The notes under the pieces were generated by a model, which saw only the letters and a list, made by a program, of their open reading frames with translations, was not told where the DNA came from and made no database searches. The position numbers were made by a program, and so were the translations under genes. Below, in pieces: positions 46,180 through 55,097 of a DNA stretch of 64,000 bases; within the stretch, counting starts at the first letter, position 1, and every line of letters starts with the position of its first letter. The DNA is from Chlorobiota bacterium (GTDB taxonomy: Bacteria > Bacteroidota > Ignavibacteria > Kapaibacteriales > HRBIN21), in contig JBCNUX010000004.1 of the NCBI GenBank assembly GCA_039630485.1, forward strand, positions 808 through 64,807. Reading direction: 5' to 3'.

Positions 46180-46207
46180 CGTGCGGTAGTCACAGCATAG
46201 CCCCGTG

Positions 46208-46816
46208 ATGACACTTGCCTCAAAAGTGATTGCTGCTTTAGAACGCCTCGGACGGGTCCTCCGCAGCGTGCTCTTAGCTGATGCCCTGAGCGAAGGTATC
46301 AGCACAACACAAGCCCAAATCTTGCTACAGTGCTACTTACAGCCAGGTCGACTCTACGGCATCACTGAGCTAGCAGGGGAACTGGACTTGACGCAGCCGA
46401 CCGTTAGCGACTCCGTGACATCTCTCCAGCGTAAGGGACTGCTGCAGAAACTACAGCGCGAAGATGATCGCCGTGCCGTTGCCGTTGTGCTGACAGCGAA
46501 AGGCAGGGCGATTGCCCACCGGCTGTGGCAGCGTCAGGTCCAGCGCTTTGAGAAAGTCCTCTCACACCTCTCCGATAACGAGGAGGTGCAACTCCTCCAC
46601 CTATTGCTCCAAACAATCGCTGCCGCCTATGCAGAGGGAATTCTCCAGAGTGCCCGGACGTGTCTGACTTGCCGCTTCCTCCGAAGGCTACCCACCGAAT
46701 ACCGAGAGCGGCAATTGGCCTACTTCTGTAGTCTCCTGGAGATGCCACTGGATATCCCGGACCTTCGGGTTCTCTGCCCCGATCACGAACCACGAGAGGA
46801 AGAGCGCATGAATTAA
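46208..46816 (+). CDS. MarR-family winged-helix regulator with Cys-rich C-terminal extension
   Basis: wHTH core (ITELAGELDLTQPTVSDSVTSLQRKGLLQKLQREDDRRAVAVVLTAKG). An extra roughly 55 aa carry C-x2-C ... C ... C (ARTCLTCRF...YFCSLL...RVLCPDHEP). Confidence 0.75.
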   Translation: MTLASKVIAALERLGRVLRSVLLADALSEGISTTQAQILLQCYLQPGRLYGITELAGELDLTQPTVSDSVTSLQRKGLLQKLQREDDRRAVAVVLTAKGRAIAHRLWQRQVQRFEKVLSHLSDNEEVQLLHLLLQTIAAAYAEGILQSARTCLTCRFLRRLPTEYRERQLAYFCSLLEMPLDIPDLRVLCPDHEPREEERMN

Positions 46817-46840: not shown

Positions 46841-46881
46841 AAAACAAAAACCGGCCGCAGCCCCTCGCGGACTGCCGCCGG
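46841..46881 (-). terminator. rho-independent terminator of the giant T9SS gene
   Basis: Stem CCGGCCGCAG(46851-60)/CTGCCGCCGG(46872-81) with one mismatch and an 11-nt loop. On the - strand it is followed by TTTTTGTTTT. Confidence 0.55.
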
Positions 46882-46899
46882 GGACGCTCTCCCTCACTC

Positions 46900-49800
46900 C
46901 TACCTCACCACCCGCACCTGCTCCACCTTCACCTCCTGCCCGTCCCGCACCACTACCACATACACCCCACTACCCAACTCCGCCAACCCTATCCACACCT
47001 GCCCTTCCTTCCCCTCCCCTACCCCACTCCACACTCGCCGCCCTAGCCCATCGTACACCTCTACCACCACACCAGCTCGCCCTCCTCCATACTCCACCCA
47101 TACCCCCTCTTCAGCCACCGTCGGCCTCACCCGCATCCACAACCCACCACCACTGACCGGCACCTCCGGCTCCTGCGGCTCCTGCTCCACTACCCCACCT
47201 CCATTGCGCCGAATGAAGTCTATCGTCGCCCGCAACACCCTGTCCACCTGCCCCCAGTGCCGCCACTCAATCCCATAGTATGCCACATTCCACCCCAACG
47301 CCACCGTCCCAACCCCAGCCACCGTGTCCACTACCCCAGCCCCACGACTCTCGTACACGTATGCCGCCTGCGCTAACCCCTCCGTGGCCGCATCGCTCCA
47401 CACCCGCAACAACGCCGGCACCGGCACATCCCCACTGACTCCCGTCCCCCGCACCAACTCCCGAATCCCGTACCCCACCGTCCGCCCAACTACATACCGC
47501 CCATCGTAGTTCGGACTCACCGGCGTCCCCGGAGGCGTCACGTACTGCGCCCGCAGTACCCGCCGCACAAACCACTCATCGTTCACCGGGTCCATCCCCA
47601 CATGCGAGCGCGCTACCTCCTGCGAGCTTACCACCAGGTTCCGCTTCTGCCCATACTGCCCACTACTCAAATACTGCCGCAGCGCCCCTCGCTCCCACTC
47701 ACTCACCTGCCCCTCCCGTCCACTCCAGAACACCCACCGATACCGCCCATACTCCACCGTCCGCGCCTCCCATCCCGCTCGGTTCAACACATCGTAATCA
47801 TACCGCCCCTGCCCCACATCCACTCGCCATCCCAGTCGGCTCACCCCCGCCAGCAACGTGTCCGCATTCCGACTCCCAACCGCACTCCCTCGGTCCACCG
47901 TCACCATCACCGGCGACCGCTCTATGTAGTACCGCACCTCCTTCCCCACCACGTTGTTCCCACCGTTCTGGTCCGGCTGCCCCGTCACCACCAGCCGATA
48001 CCGCGGCGTCACATGCTGCTCCATCCCCGCAAAGCGGGCCGGTACCACGTACCCGCTCACCTCCGCATACGCCTGCAACGGCAACTGCACCCCAAAGTCT
48101 ACCACCCTCTCCTCCCCGACGCGCAAGTCTACCCGCACCTCCCGATCCACCACCGGCACCGTAAACTGCCCTGCCCCATCCTCCCGCCACACCTGCAACC
48201 GCACCCGCCAGCCCACTACATCCGACGTCCCTCGATTCGCCACCCGCGCCTTCACCCCTGCCGGCAACCGCACCATCACGTACTCCGCATCCGCCGTCGG
48301 CCCACTGCTGGCCCGCCATACCCACGGCTCCTCAATCCGCACCACCTCCACATCCTGCTGGTACTCCCGACCCTGGAACTCATCCGCCCCAATGTCCGGC
48401 CGACTCCCACCAGCACCTCGTACCTCCCCATCAATGTCCCGACTCCATACCCCCGCCCGCCCACGATTGCTCAATATCGACCCTAAGGGTGCCGGCGACG
48501 TCCGCACCCGCAACCGCTGCACCACCGTCCCCGTCACTGCGTAGTCCCCCGTCCAGTTCCCCCACACGCTCTGCCCGTCCTGCCCCGTGGCCGCCTGCCA
48601 ACTGCTCAGCGTCCGGTACTCCCCATCCGCCCCCAGCCGCAACCCATACTGCCCCTCCGACTCCAACACCTCCACCATCCGCACCACATCCCCGCCTCCA
48701 CTGACCCAGTACGCATTCCAGTTCTGCACCACCCCGCCCGACCGCCGCGGATGCAGTCCCTCGTAAATGACCGCCGCCCGCAGCTGTGCCTGCTGCACCT
48801 CTACCCCCACCGCATTGTTCACCACCACCGGCCCCCACGCCTGCTGCACCACTATCCCGCCGACCAACCCCGTCCCCGCTACCCCATCATCCTGCACCCA
48901 CACCGTGTTGTGCGCCACCGTGTCCTGCCGCGTCCAGTACGTCCACCGCCGCGGCACCAACAACGCACTCAACCCCGTCGCCGCAGGGTCCCGCTCCGTC
49001 CACAGATGAATCCCCCCAACGTGCGCCCCCGCTGCCCCACGCCGAATCCCCCACACCACGTTGTTCACCACCCGCGTCCGCTCCGGAACGTCCGGCATCA
49101 TCACCGGCTGCGGCTCCAGCCCCGTCAAATAGTTCTGCACCTGCTCCACCACTATCCCCCGCGCCATCACCTCCGAACTGACCCGCGTCACCTCGTTGCC
49201 CTCAATGACCAACCCCACGTTGTTGTATCCCCCATACCCACCCGCTACAATCCCCGCCGCCGGCTCACTCCCACCTGTGGCCTCCTTCCCTACGTTGTCA
49301 ATCCGGTTCCCCCGTATCTCCGTCCCCTCCTCATACCCAACTACAATCCCCGCACCCCGCACGTTCGTAATCACATTCCCTACAATCCGGTTCCCGACGT
49401 TGTAGTACCGCCGCACCTTCGCCGGCCCCGCCTCCTTCAACGGGCCCAACCCCAGCGACACAATCCCATACCCAAACCCGCTGATCTCGTTGCCCTCAAT
49501 CACATTCCCCGAGCACAACACCGTGTCCAACACGTCCACCCCCTGGTATGCCGACAACCGCCAGTTGCGGATCACCACCCCCGCCGAGTACGTTACCGGC
49601 TGCCCCCCGACAATCCGCACATCCGGATCCCACTCAAACTGCCCCAACGCTACGTTGTACCGCACCCGCGGCAACGACGTTGCATAACTGGCCGACGTCG
49701 TCGGTGCGTTCCCAATCAGACAGTTCTTCACCTGCACGTTGTGTACCCCACGCCCTAAGTAGAACACCGCCCGCCGCGGCTGCCCCACCGGCGCATCCAG

Positions 49801-52164
49801 CTCAATCTTCAACGACTTCTGCTGCCCACCGTCAAAGATGATGTACCCAGAAAAGTTGGCGTATCGCGGCTCGGGGAAGTCACGGACCACTGCAAACGGA
49901 TTGCCCGTCTGTAGGCTCTGCTCCATCATGACCCCAACCCCCATACCGGACTTCAGCCGGATGGTGACGCTGCCACGCTGCAGCGCCCGTTGCCCGTAAG
50001 CGCGGAAAGTCACCGTGTTCTGGGCATTCACCCCTAGGATCGCCGAACGTAGCTCAATTGCAGGTGCACTTGCGTTGATATCCCCAACCTCATAGTAGGC
50101 ATCGGTTAGCTCAAAGACCACCGGGCCGCCAACACCCCGCTGGTAGAGCGCGTTGATAGCGTCTTGTATCGTGTTGAAATTTCGTGGACTGCCTGCAAAG
50201 AGCGTTCCAATCGTGTATGTCCCAGACAGGGGACCCTGCACGCTGAAGATCGCATGGGCTGTGTCATTCAGCCGCACCGGGTCCTGTGGATGGTAGATGA
50301 TGATCGTTGCCCGATAGTCGCCCGTCGGGAGTGTCACAGCGTTGAAGGTATAAGGCACCTGGTTGGGAAACGTTGCCGGGATATCGGGCACATACGCTGA
50401 CTGGCTGGCAACGACCTGCCCATCGGAGAGCCGTGTAATGATGAGTTGGACCGGCACATTGCTCATGTCGGTCAACCCATTATTCTGGAAGACCCCGATT
50501 GGGCGGAACGGGCGCCCACCGTAGATGACACTCCCACTCGTCGGATAGGCCACAGCTACCGATGCCAGCTCAATGTCGTACTGAATTCGGAAGATCCACT
50601 CTGGTGCTCCTGCCCGTGGTACACAGTCATTGTACGCCTGTTGATCTTGAGCGTTCAGCAGAGTACCACAGAGTCGAAGCTTGTAGTCGCCGACTCCCAT
50701 TGTGTTGAACGGCTTGAAGCGGATCGTAGCCGTCTGTCCCGTCTGCAGCCCTGGTGTCTGCTGCCAAATGACAGTATCGCGGTAGACCACACTGTTATCC
50801 GATGCACGCCGTATCTCGGCGATCGCTCGGAAGGCAGTGATCTCATCTAAGCCGACGTTCTTGTAAACCCCCTCAACCGGCGTGTTGACCCCCTGCGGGT
50901 ACTGCGTATACGACGGTGGCCGGTACGGCACTGGCATAGTGATGGCCTCTGCTGCCAGGTCATTGTTGTAAGCGACGACGAACTCCTTCTCCCAAATCGG
51001 CTCCTGGACATAGCCAGTTGTGAGATTTCGGTATGATGCCTGGAGGCGATAGGTCCCTCCGAGCGCGTTGTTAGAGGCCAATGCTAGAGAACCGTTCGGA
51101 CCAGCGTACGGTCCTTTCGCGCTCGTGATGGGCAACGTCACTAGTCCTGTAGTGCCAGCGGTGATGTCCAAGATCGTGTCGTTCGGATTCCCTCCATCGG
51201 TAGCGATGTAGACCGGATTGGTGCTCGGGAGAGGCCCAATGATCCGATATGTCAATCGCAGCTGATGTCCAGTTGCCTGACGGAAAGTGAGCGAAGGACG
51301 AGGGCGCTCTGGCGCTGAACCATCGTAATTCCACGCTGCCCGTAAGATATCCCCCTGGTTCGGGAACGAGGCCTCAATCCCTAACAGCAGCGTCATGCGC
51401 ATATTCGGACGACCATAGTAGTCGTAAGGCCAGGCACTAGAGGTCGTATAGTCGTATTCTGTCCCAAAGTAGCAGTACGAATACCAGTAAAACAAGCCCA
51501 GCACTGTGTTGCGAGTGTTCCGCTCCGATGGCGTCGCTTCATAGATATACGTGCTACGCCACAGCCCATATCCTCTGAGGTAGTCAGGGTAGGAGGTAGG
51601 ACAGTTCTGGCTGCAAGGATTCACAAATTCTATAATCACCACCAGGTTGCCTCCGGTATAGACGTAACCGGGGTTGAGTGTAAATCCATCCCACTGTCCT
51701 GCGGGGATGGTCTGAGTGAACGCTTTCCCCTCGAAGACGAGCTGGATGTTCTGCAAGCTCGTTGGAGCTGCACCGCTGATGAGCTGTTGGTAGGTTACCG
51801 CCGTGTATGGGAAGTTGGGCTGCGGAGAGATCGCCATGTAGACCCTGAACTGCTGACCCCTATCTGTAAACTGACACAAAGTACCCTGTCCATACCACGG
51901 GTCTCCGTGAGCCTGGAATTCTATCCGGCTGATGAGTCCTGGGACTCCACCTGCCTGCTGAATAAACCACCCAGAATAGAGTAACGCCACGTACTGTTTG
52001 CGCGGGTAGACGTAGTAGTCACCATAGCAATACTGGCTGTAGGGTGTGTAGTAAATGTAACTACTGCTGTTCGGATTCCCGATGATGACCTGCAACTGCG
52101 CTTGTGCAAATGGAACGGCGACACCTCCGAAAACAAGAAGGGCAAGAAAGAGGAAGCGTGCCAT
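46900..52164 (-). CDS. very large secreted right-handed beta-helix (PbH1-repeat) protein with T9SS C-terminal sorting domain
   Basis: ORF 46900..52203. The probable start is ATG 52164 (MARFLFLALLVFGGVAVPFAQAQ). PbH1-like repeats include GNVIEGNEISGFGYGIV, NRIVGNVITNVRGAGIVVG, IRGNRIDNVG and VIEGNEV. The C-terminus is ...LGSGVYVVVVRDGQEVKVEQVRVVR. Confidence 0.8.
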   Translation of the reverse strand: MARFLFLALLVFGGVAVPFAQAQLQVIIGNPNSSSYIYYTPYSQYCYGDYYVYPRKQYVALLYSGWFIQQAGGVPGLISRIEFQAHGDPWYGQGTLCQFTDRGQQFRVYMAISPQPNFPYTAVTYQQLISGAAPTSLQNIQLVFEGKAFTQTIPAGQWDGFTLNPGYVYTGGNLVVIIEFVNPCSQNCPTSYPDYLRGYGLWRSTYIYEATPSERNTRNTVLGLFYWYSYCYFGTEYDYTTSSAWPYDYYGRPNMRMTLLLGIEASFPNQGDILRAAWNYDGSAPERPRPSLTFRQATGHQLRLTYRIIGPLPSTNPVYIATDGGNPNDTILDITAGTTGLVTLPITSAKGPYAGPNGSLALASNNALGGTYRLQASYRNLTTGYVQEPIWEKEFVVAYNNDLAAEAITMPVPYRPPSYTQYPQGVNTPVEGVYKNVGLDEITAFRAIAEIRRASDNSVVYRDTVIWQQTPGLQTGQTATIRFKPFNTMGVGDYKLRLCGTLLNAQDQQAYNDCVPRAGAPEWIFRIQYDIELASVAVAYPTSGSVIYGGRPFRPIGVFQNNGLTDMSNVPVQLIITRLSDGQVVASQSAYVPDIPATFPNQVPYTFNAVTLPTGDYRATIIIYHPQDPVRLNDTAHAIFSVQGPLSGTYTIGTLFAGSPRNFNTIQDAINALYQRGVGGPVVFELTDAYYEVGDINASAPAIELRSAILGVNAQNTVTFRAYGQRALQRGSVTIRLKSGMGVGVMMEQSLQTGNPFAVVRDFPEPRYANFSGYIIFDGGQQKSLKIELDAPVGQPRRAVFYLGRGVHNVQVKNCLIGNAPTTSASYATSLPRVRYNVALGQFEWDPDVRIVGGQPVTYSAGVVIRNWRLSAYQGVDVLDTVLCSGNVIEGNEISGFGYGIVSLGLGPLKEAGPAKVRRYYNVGNRIVGNVITNVRGAGIVVGYEEGTEIRGNRIDNVGKEATGGSEPAAGIVAGGYGGYNNVGLVIEGNEVTRVSSEVMARGIVVEQVQNYLTGLEPQPVMMPDVPERTRVVNNVVWGIRRGAAGAHVGGIHLWTERDPAATGLSALLVPRRWTYWTRQDTVAHNTVWVQDDGVAGTGLVGGIVVQQAWGPVVVNNAVGVEVQQAQLRAAVIYEGLHPRRSGGVVQNWNAYWVSGGGDVVRMVEVLESEGQYGLRLGADGEYRTLSSWQAATGQDGQSVWGNWTGDYAVTGTVVQRLRVRTSPAPLGSILSNRGRAGVWSRDIDGEVRGAGGSRPDIGADEFQGREYQQDVEVVRIEEPWVWRASSGPTADAEYVMVRLPAGVKARVANRGTSDVVGWRVRLQVWREDGAGQFTVPVVDREVRVDLRVGEERVVDFGVQLPLQAYAEVSGYVVPARFAGMEQHVTPRYRLVVTGQPDQNGGNNVVGKEVRYYIERSPVMVTVDRGSAVGSRNADTLLAGVSRLGWRVDVGQGRYDYDVLNRAGWEARTVEYGRYRWVFWSGREGQVSEWERGALRQYLSSGQYGQKRNLVVSSQEVARSHVGMDPVNDEWFVRRVLRAQYVTPPGTPVSPNYDGRYVVGRTVGYGIRELVRGTGVSGDVPVPALLRVWSDAATEGLAQAAYVYESRGAGVVDTVAGVGTVALGWNVAYYGIEWRHWGQVDRVLRATIDFIRRNGGGVVEQEPQEPEVPVSGGGLWMRVRPTVAEEGVWVEYGGGRAGVVVEVYDGLGRRVWSGVGEGKEGQVWIGLAELGSGVYVVVVRDGQEVKVEQVRVVR

Positions 52165-52269
52165 CGTACGACCTCCATGCAAGATGCTATGGAACATGCT
52201 CATTGTTTTCTTCTCAAACTATCGTGCTCGTAAGTTCCCGACTCTATGAGCGGGCCGCGCTCTCTCGTA

Positions 52270-52379: not shown

Positions 52380-55097
52380 ATGAGCGGAGAGCGCTTCCCC
52401 ACAGCGTATACCCCAAACCAGGCAGAGCGCCGCTGGTACGCAGAGTGGCTTCGCTACGACCTCTTCCGAGCAGATCCAAACTCCGGGCGCCCGCCGTACA
52501 GCATCTTGATGCCACCACCGAACGTGACTGGGATGCTCCACTTCGGGCATGTGCTCAACATCACTCTGCAGGATATCTACATCCGCTGGCATCGGATGCT
52601 GGGCTACGAGGTCTGCTGGTTCCCGGGGCTAGACCATGCAGGGATTGCTACTCAGGTCAAAGTTGAGCAGCAACTGGCTGCTGAAGGTTTGACCCGGCAG
52701 CAGCTTGGGCGCGAGCGCTTCGTTGAACGCGTCTGGCAGTGGAAGGAGCGCTACGGCGGAATCATCCTAGAGCAGATGCGGGCTTTGGGGATTTCGTGCG
52801 ATTGGAGCCGAACCCTGTTCACGATGGACGAGAGCGCCTCCAACGCCGTCCGCGAGGTCTTCATCCGGCTCTACGATGAGGGCCTCATCTACCGCGGGAA
52901 GCGCATCATCAATTGGTCTCCGCGACTGCAATCGGCGCTCTCGGACGAGGAGGTCGTCTACCGCTCCGTGACGGAGGAGCTGTTGGTGCTCCGCTACGAG
53001 CTTGAGGATGGGAGTGGCCACATCCCTGTAGCTACTGTGCGCCCAGAGACCATCTTCGCAGACGTTGCCGTAGCGATTCACCCAGAAGATGAGCGGTACA
53101 AGACATACGTCGGACGGCGCGTGCGTGTGCCGCTCACCGATCGTTTCGTACCCGTCATCGAAGACGAAGCTGTAGACCCAACCTTTGGGACTGGTGCCTT
53201 GAAGGTCACCCCGGCTCATGACCCACTGGACTTCGAGATTGGACAGCGCCATGGGCTACCGCTGTTGGTGTGCTTAACCCCAGAGGGCGTGCTCAACGAG
53301 CTGGCTGGCCCCTTTGCAGGGCTAGAGCGCTTCGAAGCCCGTCGCCGCGTCACCGAACGCCTGCGAGAGCTGGGTCTACTGGAACGCAGTGAGCCCTACA
53401 CACACAACGTCGGCTTCTCTGAGCGGAGCGGAGAACCCGTGGAGCCGTACATCAGCGACCAGTGGTTTGTACGGATGAAGCCCTTGGCAGAGCCAGCGCT
53501 ACAAGCCGTGCTAGATGGGCGCATCCGGTTTCACCCCGAACACTGGGTTAAGACCTACGAGCACTGGATGCGCAACGTGCGGGATTGGTGCATCTCGCGC
53601 CAACTCTGGTGGGGACATCGAATCCCCGTATACTACACTCCAGATGGCCGCTACACAGCCGCCCGTTCACCCGAAGAGGCCCGCCAACGACTGGGACTTT
53701 CCCCAGACGTCCCCCTTGAGCAGGACCCAGACGTTCTGGACACCTGGTTCTCCTCGTGGCTCTGGCCGCTGACCACGATGCGCTGGCTTGCCGACGGAAA
53801 GACCGAAGAGACTACCGACCTTAAGGTCTTTCTGCCCACCAACCTCCTGGTCACCGCCCCGGAGATCATCTTCTTCTGGGTCGCCCGAATGATCATGGCG
53901 ACGCTGAAGTTCCGCGGCACTATCCCCTTCCGCGACGTCTACTTCACGAGCGTCATCCGGGACAGCTACGGGCGCAAGCTCTCGAAATCGCTCGGGAACT
54001 CTCCCGACCCGCTGCCGATCATCGCCAAGTACGGCGCCGACGCAGTACGGTTCACCATGATCTACCTTGCCCCGCTGGGCCAGGACGTGCGCATGAAGAT
54101 CGATGAGCGCGCCCAGGATATCCCCTCGATGGAGATTGGGCGGAACTTTGCCAACAAGCTGTGGAACGCTGGCCGCTTCCTATGGCTCAAGTGCCAGCAG
54201 TATGGGCTCTCGGATGCCGCGCTGCTAGAATCTGAGCTTGCTCTCCCAGAGCGCTGGATCCGCTCCCGATTCGCCGCAACGCTCCAAGCAACTGAGTCAG
54301 CGCTCCGGGAGTACCGCGTCCACGAATACGCCCGCTTGCTGTACGACTTCGTCTGGAGCGACTTCTGCGACTGGTACATAGAGGCCCTCAAGGTACTACT
54401 CCAGCGCTCAACACCGCAGGAAGCAGCATGCCGGTGCCGTTTCGCGCTAGACCTCTACGAGGGCATCCTCCGGCTGTTGCACCCAGTTACGCCCTTCGTT
54501 ACAGAGGAGCTCTGGCACCTCCTCTGGGAGCGCAGAGAGGGGGAGTTCCTCTGCACTGCAGCAGCTGCATCAGCGCCACGGGAGTGGTACTCGGCCGAGA
54601 CCGAGGAAGCCTTCTCGCTCCTCCAGGCACTCGTTGAAGAGGCACGGCGGCTGCGGGCCATCTTGGGTCTGCCACCGCAGGAGCGTCCACCGCTCTTCAT
54701 TCGTCCTGCCGATGACGGAACCTCGGCGATCGTCCGGGAGCACCTCTGGCTACTGGATGCTTTGGTACCCTGCCAAGCTCAGGTGGGAACCGATCACAGC
54801 ACCCTAGACAAGGCACTCAGTGGCGTTGTACGCGGGATAGAACTCCTGCTGCCCATTAGCGCCGATTACGATCTCTCGGCAGAGCTGGAACGCCTCCATC
54901 GAGAGATAGCCCGCCTGGAGCGCTTGCTGGAAGAGAATCGAGCAAAGCTCCACAACGAGGCCTTTCTGCAGCGAGCACCTCAGCATGTCATCGAACGGGA
55001 GCGTGAAAAGGAGCAGAGCTTCCTACAGTCGCTCAGCAGGCTGCGAGAGCGGCTGCAGCTTCTTGAGAGCCTGACCTCCGGAGGCAGAGATGCGTGA
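52380..55097 (+). CDS. valS: valine--tRNA ligase
   Basis: 905 aa. [16 protein letters not shown] (HIGH-type), KLSKSLGN (KMSKS) and a C-terminal coiled coil. Confidence 0.97.

Follow-up and report, generated by a model that had tools for sequence, protein, structure and literature searches.

What makes a single bacterial gene change its base composition within a few codons, and keep the new composition to its end? The question was raised by a giant gene for a type IX secretion system (T9SS) surface protein in a 64,000-nt stretch of a Chlorobiota bacterium contig (JBCNUX010000004.1), which was analysed as a whole and is called the window here. The gene is on the minus strand. Its 3' portion, the module, is heavily loaded with G on the coding strand, and the 5' part upstream of it is of ordinary composition. 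Our preferred answer, to which we give a probability of about 0.6, is that the module is the shared 3' 'constant' module of a paralogous family of giant T9SS beta-helix genes, homogenized by gene conversion, with skew and recombination reinforcing each other. Below, W followed by a number is a codon position in the open reading frame (ORF) of the window's giant gene, and L-numbers are related loci or assemblies. All the sequences compared came from metagenomes.

Sliding GC skew on the plus strand was -0.40 to -0.68 from ~46850 to ~49700, on a window background of ~-0.1. The change-point was estimated by maximum likelihood on G at third codon positions (G3). It fell at codon 793, with a support interval of 2 log-likelihood units (lnL) covering codons 791-795 (window 49819-49833) and a delta lnL of 116. 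G3 was 0.31 upstream of the switch and 0.67 downstream. An earlier note on this DNA had described a two-part mosaic with a switch within ~50 nt, and the change-point bore this out. The hand counts on which it was based were exact (46921-46980, C=34 and G=3; 48841-48900, C=33 and G=7; 50161-50220, C=11 and G=16), and a recount agreed on G as the final base in 19 of the last 23 sense codons. The 5' part was also lower in G+C as claimed, at 0.554 vs 0.608 for the window; the module had 0.654.

At 4-fold degenerate sites, the base frequencies were G.35, A.21, C.25 and T.19 in the 5' part, and G.80, A.10, C.05 and T.05 in the module. G also increased from.31 to.49 at codon position 1 and from.20 to.30 at position 2. 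The protein composition of the module was shifted accordingly towards V (16.6%), G (14.3%), R (9.4%), E (6.4%) and W (3.3%). The coding-strand GC skew of the module was 0.49, and that of its third positions was 0.69. No other ORF of at least 150 aa in the window showed a comparable skew, and the other long genes of the window and of the 10-kb flanks of the homologous loci were normal. The claim that T is used for C where a pyrimidine is forced was correct for Ile (ATC from 34 to 2) and Ser (AGC/AGT from 16/8 to 9/21), but not when two-fold pyrimidine sites were pooled (60% C before the switch, 58% after).

Throughout the window (1-64000), the minus-strand genes have G3>C3 and the plus-strand genes C3>G3. 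This suggested that the plus strand is probably the lagging strand, and that the giant gene is co-directional with replication.

Two pairs of paralogues revealed gene conversion. L043 and L044 lie on one 2.19-Mb contig, and L108 and L110 on one 155-kb contig of another species. Each is an entire gene that has a signal peptide of its own, and the paralogues are separated by 107 kb to 1.8 Mb. Identity between the 5' parts was 21-60% in both pairs, climbed patchily towards the 3' end, and was ~100% in nucleotides from ~W784-820. The identical tract ended at the stop codon in L043/L044 and just beyond the terminator in L108/L110. Across species, the 5' parts grouped by paralogue type (A-A 71-99%, C-C 78-100%, A-C 51-59%), whereas the modules grouped by genome, not by paralogue type. 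This indicated concerted evolution and not recent duplication.

Each paralogue thus has a type-specific 5' part that codes for the N-terminal region, and the module, from the motif I-x-FDGG-x-QKSL to the stop codon or terminator, is homogenized between copies of the same genome by gene conversion. The onset of purine (G) loading lies at, or close to, the 5' limit of the homogenized tract. In the clade of the window, the switch (793) coincides with the start of the paralogues' identical tract; in a second clade, KatS3, the fraction of differing codons drops near the clade's own switch. The window's gene is a mosaic because a type-specific 5' part sits on a concertedly evolving 3' module. Recombination with a foreign or paralogous cassette had been proposed for it. 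The paralogous version holds, as the skewed part is a paralogue-shared module evolving in concert; a single foreign import does not, given near-saturated synonymous sites and three clades with three boundaries. No silent cassettes, tandem repeats or inverted repeats were found in or near the giant gene.

At L108 codons 450-480, a 30-codon patch had 3% differing codons relative to L110, and its surroundings 50-80%. The patch has the appearance of a small conversion tract of its own, 5' of the main homogenized module.

As a control, same-genome pairs without skew were compared, and in 12 of 13 the modules were only 54-70% identical in nucleotides. The ends of contigs were also recorded. Among the window's nearest relatives, four of five contigs from metagenome-assembled genomes (MAGs) break off 18-135 nt beyond the switch, and six long contigs of an AT-rich clade end at W1129-1156, just past a switch at ~W1120; in all, 10 contigs stop 15-135 nt past a switch. 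The L047 contig begins at W773. L001 and L082, two assemblies of a single species, are 98.2% identical over 10.4 kb (valS side, giant gene and terminator), and carry unrelated DNA immediately after the T run of the terminator (L001:10384-10450 vs L082:12919-12985). L081 (91% identical) has the alternative flank of L001 and starts inside the module.

Other members of the family have switch points of their own. In the KatS3 clade (KatS3mg039/040, HR20 and Yellowstone-type contigs; ~40% identity) the switch lies at ~W606-632, and G at 4-fold sites increases from ~0.33 to 0.60-0.71. The AT-rich clade, with 36-42% G+C, switches at the position given above. In all three clades the skew regime extends to the 3' end of the gene, and the skewed tract measures 2.3-3.8 kb in the relatives. 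About 60 further homologues, mostly from lakes, sediments and reactors, have no skew, and the module is homologous to such unskewed members over its whole length. The carriers of the skew are all from hot springs, an association with thermophily that is phylogenetically confounded. The 10-kb flanks of the homologous loci showed no skew, with a single borderline exception in L077, a 32% G+C genome. There, positions 1951-2851, outside the homologous gene, have a GC skew of 0.305 over 900 nt, the sole flank segment above 0.3 among ~150 loci.

The gene of L004, a homologue from Ignavibacteria without skew, was called as two overlapping pieces of 627 aa and 1104 aa (L004:9990-10030). The split is caused by one extra G in GGCGGTGGCCC, exactly at the FDGG/xQKSL junction, at which the skew or repeat sets in elsewhere, in other clades. 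The extra G could be a sequencing error, a pseudogene mutation or the mark of a slippage-prone site.

Homologues of the module were found at 76-88% identity (C-half), and many more at ~40% across Ignavibacteria and Kapabacteria. The switch was at the homologous codon in seven independent assemblies (the window, L001, L002, L005, L007, L082 and L138), and the window was collinear with L082 on both flanks of the giant gene. An assembly chimera, which the earlier note had listed as a possible cause, was rejected on these grounds. Among the orthologues, identity at 4-fold sites was 0.61-0.70, where composition alone predicts 0.57-0.63. Despite this near-saturation, G made up 69-80% of 4-fold sites in every orthologue lineage, and the substitution pattern fitted a stationary model. 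The synonymous sites have largely turned over with G kept everywhere; the regime is a maintained stationary state. The N-half of the window's protein shared 39-46% identity with the N-halves designated 'type B' in its closest relatives, and its module 77-88% with theirs. W-L1 identity jumped at codon ~658, 135 codons upstream of the G switch. A word-seeded search for relatives of this N-half returned none, its candidate list being swamped.

The nature of the skew was defined by comparing GC-rich and AT-rich genomes. From the 5' part to the module, purines at 4-fold sites rose from 0.56 to 0.90 in the window, from 0.53 to 0.84 in L108, and from 0.44 to 0.80 in the AT-rich L016. In L016, T fell from.42 to.08, while A rose from.35 to.52 and G from.09 to.29. 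The common factor across these genomes is purine loading of the coding strand. Because T falls while A rises, pyrimidine-to-purine transversions are needed, and a process that yields transitions only, such as deamination or tautomer mispairing, is excluded. The strand-asymmetric transitions (C to T and A to G) that had been suggested are therefore insufficient; they account neither for the rise in purines nor for a T that falls instead of rising. GC-biased conversion combined with deamination of non-template C was also considered. A back-of-envelope stationary model predicted ~0.67-0.76 purines with T >= C; 0.90 purines and T ~ C were observed, and the model was rejected.

Selection for G-quadruplexes (G4), another earlier suggestion, fared no better. 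Canonical motifs (G3+N1-7 x4) numbered 1, 3 and 5, vs 3.8, 4.7 and 5.7 in synonymous shuffles. Runs of five or more G were depleted (19 vs 32 +/- 2.6 expected), as was GGGGG (21 vs 58 +/- 5). The G of the module is dispersed as NNG codons. No k-mer of 5-8 nt was consistently above the synonymous shuffles in three lineages. Chi-like or recombination words (GGTGG and GCTGGTGG) and the Shine-Dalgarno-like pausing words GGAGG and AGGAGG occurred at expectation. There was no match to an Rfam family, and no sigma-70-like promoter at the switch in a scan whose model does not cover Bacteroidota-type promoters.

The physical properties of the strand and its transcript were also calculated. At least 40% G was present in 97% of the 100-nt windows of the module, and R-loop initiation motifs occurred at 18.8 per kb, vs 0.9 in the 5' part. 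Judged from these figures, the module fits the definition of a putative R-loop-forming sequence throughout. The purine fraction was 0.65 over the whole module and ~0.50 in the 5' part and the neighbouring genes. The sense RNA of the module had no 78-nt window with C>G; on the antisense strand, C-G exceeded 10% in 99% of windows. The folding energy of the module was -0.305 kcal/mol/nt, vs -0.35 when recoded with the codon usage of the 5' part. It equalled that of the 5' part itself, and the idea that the module is an unstructured mRNA was dropped.

In the explanation that we prefer, skew and recombination would reinforce each other as follows. The transcript of a region with a purine-rich, C-poor coding strand of low complexity would pair with DNA in highly stable RNA:DNA hybrids, leaving a defined single strand exposed. 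These hybrids, or strand-invasion intermediates, may favour pairing and conversion between the copies, and conversion would in turn spread and preserve the skewed version. The part for secretion and anchoring would be kept uniform in this way, with 5' parts that are exchangeable on the module.

Several observations weigh against this explanation. The onset of skew in the KatS3 clade, at ~W620, precedes the perfectly identical tract by ~165 codons, and there the coincidence of skew and conversion tract is only approximate and patchy. The modules of L063 and L064 (one 4.5-Mb contig, 37% G+C) are 91-98% identical with zero GC skew, which means that skew is not required for homogenization, unless the two are a recent duplication. 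The window has no second copy of the module within its 64 kb, and the status of its module as a repeat is taken from the relatives. In the L001 species, most assemblies continue without a break through the gene, and the copy number may therefore differ between species. The 100% identity in MAGs may be partly inflated by consensus polishing. GC-biased conversion as it is known is strand-symmetric, and would not yield G without C. Finally, polarized substitution spectra were withdrawn as evidence of a fixation bias, the test being uninformative. Changes away from G far outnumbered those towards G in the module (e.g. 103 vs 20 at 4-fold sites), but simulation under a stationary F81 model, given the composition and divergences found here, reproduced the imbalance (4.2/16.5 vs 3/15 observed). 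This indicated that the spectra cannot separate mutation bias from fixation bias.

An alternative that we hold to be unlikely, though worth keeping in view, is that the skew is a functionless mutational by-product. One-directional resynthesis or single-strand exposure during conversion, break repair or hot transcription would leave asymmetric errors or damage. The authors of the work on GRINS, a similar class of skewed repeats, also prefer a replication-error origin (PMC8256042). The stationary mutational model fits the data here, and the order position 3 > position 1 > position 2 is expected of directional mutation under protein constraint. The regime is limited to the conversion tract and stops at its 3' limit, and every carrier is from a hot spring, an environment of rapid base damage. 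On the other hand, such a process needs pyrimidine-to-purine transversions, as the T of the AT-rich genomes and the C and T of the window (both.05 in the module) make plain, and deamination and tautomer mispairing yield transitions only. We know of no bacterial process that makes one-strand changes of this kind so strongly. In addition, the strong depletion of runs of five or more G implies that selection also shapes the sequence.

A bolder reading, which we consider doubtful, takes the module as a bacterial counterpart of a recombination 'switch region', with the purine skew as a selected recombination signal. Transcription at hot-spring temperatures would form stable RNA:DNA hybrids, and these would set off pairing of dispersed copies in a strand-specific manner. 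The cell could then homogenize the part for secretion and anchoring and re-assort different N-terminal surface domains onto it. If so, this would be a distinct purine-axis class of skewed repeat, for which the transition/tautomer model of GRINS cannot account.

Selection on the mRNA apart from recombination seems slightly more doubtful still. It could act through resistance to Rho termination, through less RNA-RNA pairing at high temperature, or through clearance of antisense transcripts by Rho. The distribution of C and G on the two strands would suit all of this, as would a folding weaker than that of the recoded version and a regime that goes no further than the transcription unit. A tendency of thermophile mRNAs to be purine-loaded has, moreover, been described. 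Yet the effect is limited to a single gene, in which it sets in sharply at an internal codon, while the other long genes of the window and the 10-kb flanks are normal. A boundary that varies between clades and matches the paralogue-shared tract is left unexplained, and the folding energy of the module is no lower than that of the 5' part.

A one-time import from a differently composed donor, or an assembly chimera at ~49.83 kb, would account for an abrupt change inside one ORF and for halves of different phylogenetic affinity, but can practically be discounted in view of the identical switch in seven assemblies, the collinearity with L082 on both sides, the near-saturated synonymous sites with the regime kept in every lineage, the homologues of ~40% identity in two other clades with their own switch points, and the end-to-end homology with unskewed family members.

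The earlier note knew of no standard feature class for this skew. Two closely similar cases have in fact been reported, GRINS (PMC8256042) and the skew of vls cassettes (PMC11499132); the statement is out of date, although neither case explains the cause of the skew. GRINS are duplicated regions of >500 bp and >80% identity with mean |GC| and |TA| skew >0.15 (PMC8256042). Their composition changes abruptly and most strongly at third positions, Gly, Val and Trp codons are enriched, and they are linked to gene conversion, with the origin of the skew unexplained (PMC8256042). They have been reported in several phyla and gene families (PMC8256042). Canonical GRINS couple GC and TA skew (G+T vs C+A, r ~0.7) and often flip sign within 1 kb, although GRINS with anticorrelated skews exist (PMC8256042).

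The skewed tracts were scanned for these properties in 150-nt windows with a step of 30. The module (2925 nt) and its counterparts in the relatives are well above 500 bp. Mean |GC| skew was 0.484 in the window, 0.25-0.53 over the window and KatS3 clades and 0.18-0.31 in the AT-rich clade, vs 0.06-0.11 in the 5' parts. On the other hand, mean |TA| skew in the window was 0.098, below 0.15, with a net TA skew of 0.05 and r = 0.00. It was 0.10 in the KatS3 pairs and 0.19-0.20 in the AT-rich clade, where A>T (-0.20), opposite to the usual GRINS coupling. Identity above 80% was found in the relatives L043/L044 and L108/L110 and has no counterpart inside the window, which holds a single copy. For the window's own clade, the positions at which contigs end and the two alternative downstream flanks lend duplication indirect support. 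The third-position peak and the Val, Gly and Trp enrichment described above are those of GRINS. The close-pair ratio of nonsynonymous to synonymous polymorphism (pN/pS) of the module was 0.10-0.22, similar to that of the 5' part. The module is part of a real gene under purifying selection, and its protein is functional.

The module and GRINS share long coding segments, an abrupt and intense skew, a functional protein and, as seen in the relatives, duplication with conversion. They differ in that the axis here is purine vs pyrimidine, the skew keeps one sign over 2.3-3.8 kb and is anchored to the gene's 3' end, and the GC skew is far beyond the 0.15 threshold. The host gene is for a T9SS surface protein of thermophilic Kapabacteria, not a polyketide synthase, and the copies are dispersed whole genes, not tandem modules. 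Operationally, the module can be called a GRINS-like element, of the purine (R over Y) type, from a gene family and a lineage that are new as hosts. None of the literature searched reports elements of this kind from T9SS genes or from Kapabacteria.

The vls cassettes of Borrelia have a mean coding-strand GC skew of 0.52, also linked to gene conversion; their authors concluded that the skew must be maintained and is tied to recombination, by a mechanism that is unexplained (PMC11499132). As in the module, the coding strand of a surface protein has a skew of ~0.5 with a G+C above the genome average (PMC11499132; Walia & Chaconas 2013, PMC3585125). The skew is likewise confined to converting sequences, with no conserved canonical G4 arrangement. 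However, vls consists of one expression site and contiguous promoterless silent cassettes on a linear plasmid, and nothing resembling cassette repeats occurs here. Conversion at vls is segmental, unidirectional and diversifying, whereas here the skewed part is homogenized and the variable part is unskewed. The G's of vls lie in runs of 3-5; those of the module are dispersed in NNG codons. The organism here is free-living, with no adaptive-immune host.

Other systems were more distant. Immunoglobulin class-switch regions are non-coding and repetitive and act through AID (activation-induced cytidine deaminase). They resemble the module in a kb-scale G-rich non-template strand downstream of a defined start, in dense G clusters, and in recombination between copies with a common G-rich region and different flanking coding parts. 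The module, however, is constrained coding sequence without repeats, so that this is a resemblance and not membership. Lao and Forsdyke are said to have described, in 2000, a genome-wide purine loading of thermophile mRNAs (Szybalski's rule). The sense-strand purine excess and the thermophilic carriers agree with it, but such loading is mild and genome-wide, and here it is confined to the module. A G-quadruplex recombination site of the pilE type was rejected, canonical motifs being neither enriched nor above the shuffles. As for a diversity-generating retroelement, no repeat pair was present in or around the gene and the 2.9-kb tract is conserved; a reverse transcriptase was not searched for window-wide.

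GRINS and vls are two unexplained links between skew and gene conversion, and the giant T9SS family offers an unusually clean natural experiment on such links. The skew is extreme and of one sign, and its boundary, sharp to within a few codons, stays in place inside each clade and shifts from one clade to another. GC-rich and AT-rich genomes together reveal the purine axis and exclude deamination and tautomer models here. Unskewed homologues with diverged paralogues serve as controls. There are also practical consequences. Such modules break or mis-join metagenomic assemblies, produce long spurious antisense ORFs, and give half-gene phylogenies in mutual conflict, and the protein composition is distorted enough to hide domains.

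The features of the locus are listed in Table 1.

Table 1. Features of the giant gene and its surroundings, in window coordinates
Feature	Position	Strand	Remarks
Giant T9SS surface-protein gene	46900..52203	-	ORF of 1767 codons
Probable start ATG	52164	-	Gives 1754 aa with signal peptide MARFLFLALLVFGGVAVPFAQA
Type-specific 5' (N-terminal) part	50233..52164	-	G+C 0.55, ordinary composition
Conserved, unskewed segment	49828..50232	-	Codons 658-792, begins QGPLSGTYTIG
Type-specific variable patch		-	Codons ~757-783, closes the conserved unskewed segment (codons 658-792)
Switch point	49819..49833	-	Codons 791-795, ...ATC TTT GAC / GGT GGG CAG CAG AAG TCG TTG...
Purine (G)-loaded 3' 'constant' module	46903..49827	-	Codons 793-1767, 2925 nt
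Right-handed parallel beta-helix repeats	49288..49593	-	Residues 871-972; PF13229, TIGR03804
T9SS type A sorting domain (C-terminal)	46903..47229	-	Within the skewed module; TIGR04183
Intrinsic terminator (hairpin + T run)	46845..46890	-	Directly 3' of the stop codon; the skew regime ends there
Long antisense ORFs	47602-48486, 48751-49758	+	By-products, not genes

The conserved motif I-x-FDGG-x-QKSL is encoded at the switch point itself. The beta-helix repeats scored 25.4 bits with PF13229, slightly below the cut-off of 25.9, and 20.1 bits with TIGR03804 (cut-off 19.45). When the last 109 aa were scanned alone, TIGR04183 scored 26.4 bits vs a cut-off of 23, as in T9SS type A cargo. A Pfam scan of the skewed protein at full length missed the sorting domain; homologues without skew have PF18962 on record. 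The domain is barely detectable, with the NCBIfam model just above its threshold, because the compositional drive has eroded profile detectability. An exact-protein look-up of the giant gene gave no record.

An antisense gene over the module was rejected. The plus-strand ORFs are long because position 1 of an antisense codon pairs with position 3 of a sense codon, and NNG becomes CNN, which is never a stop; they are CNN-codon artefacts. The sense codons TTA, CTA and TCA, which are antisense stops, are still present four times in the module.

Hairpins equivalent to the terminator of the window follow the stop codon in L001 and L002. The immediate neighbours of the giant gene are valS and a gene for a MarR-type regulator. 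The MarR-family transcriptional regulator (window 46205-46816, plus strand) faces the giant gene in convergent orientation, with a terminator region common to both, and its homologue is collinear in L082. In L001 (451-4611), and also in L082, a 1386-aa gene with an IgGFc_binding domain lies between valS and the giant gene. The window lacks this gene, and valS (52380-55097) and the giant gene are direct, divergent neighbours there.

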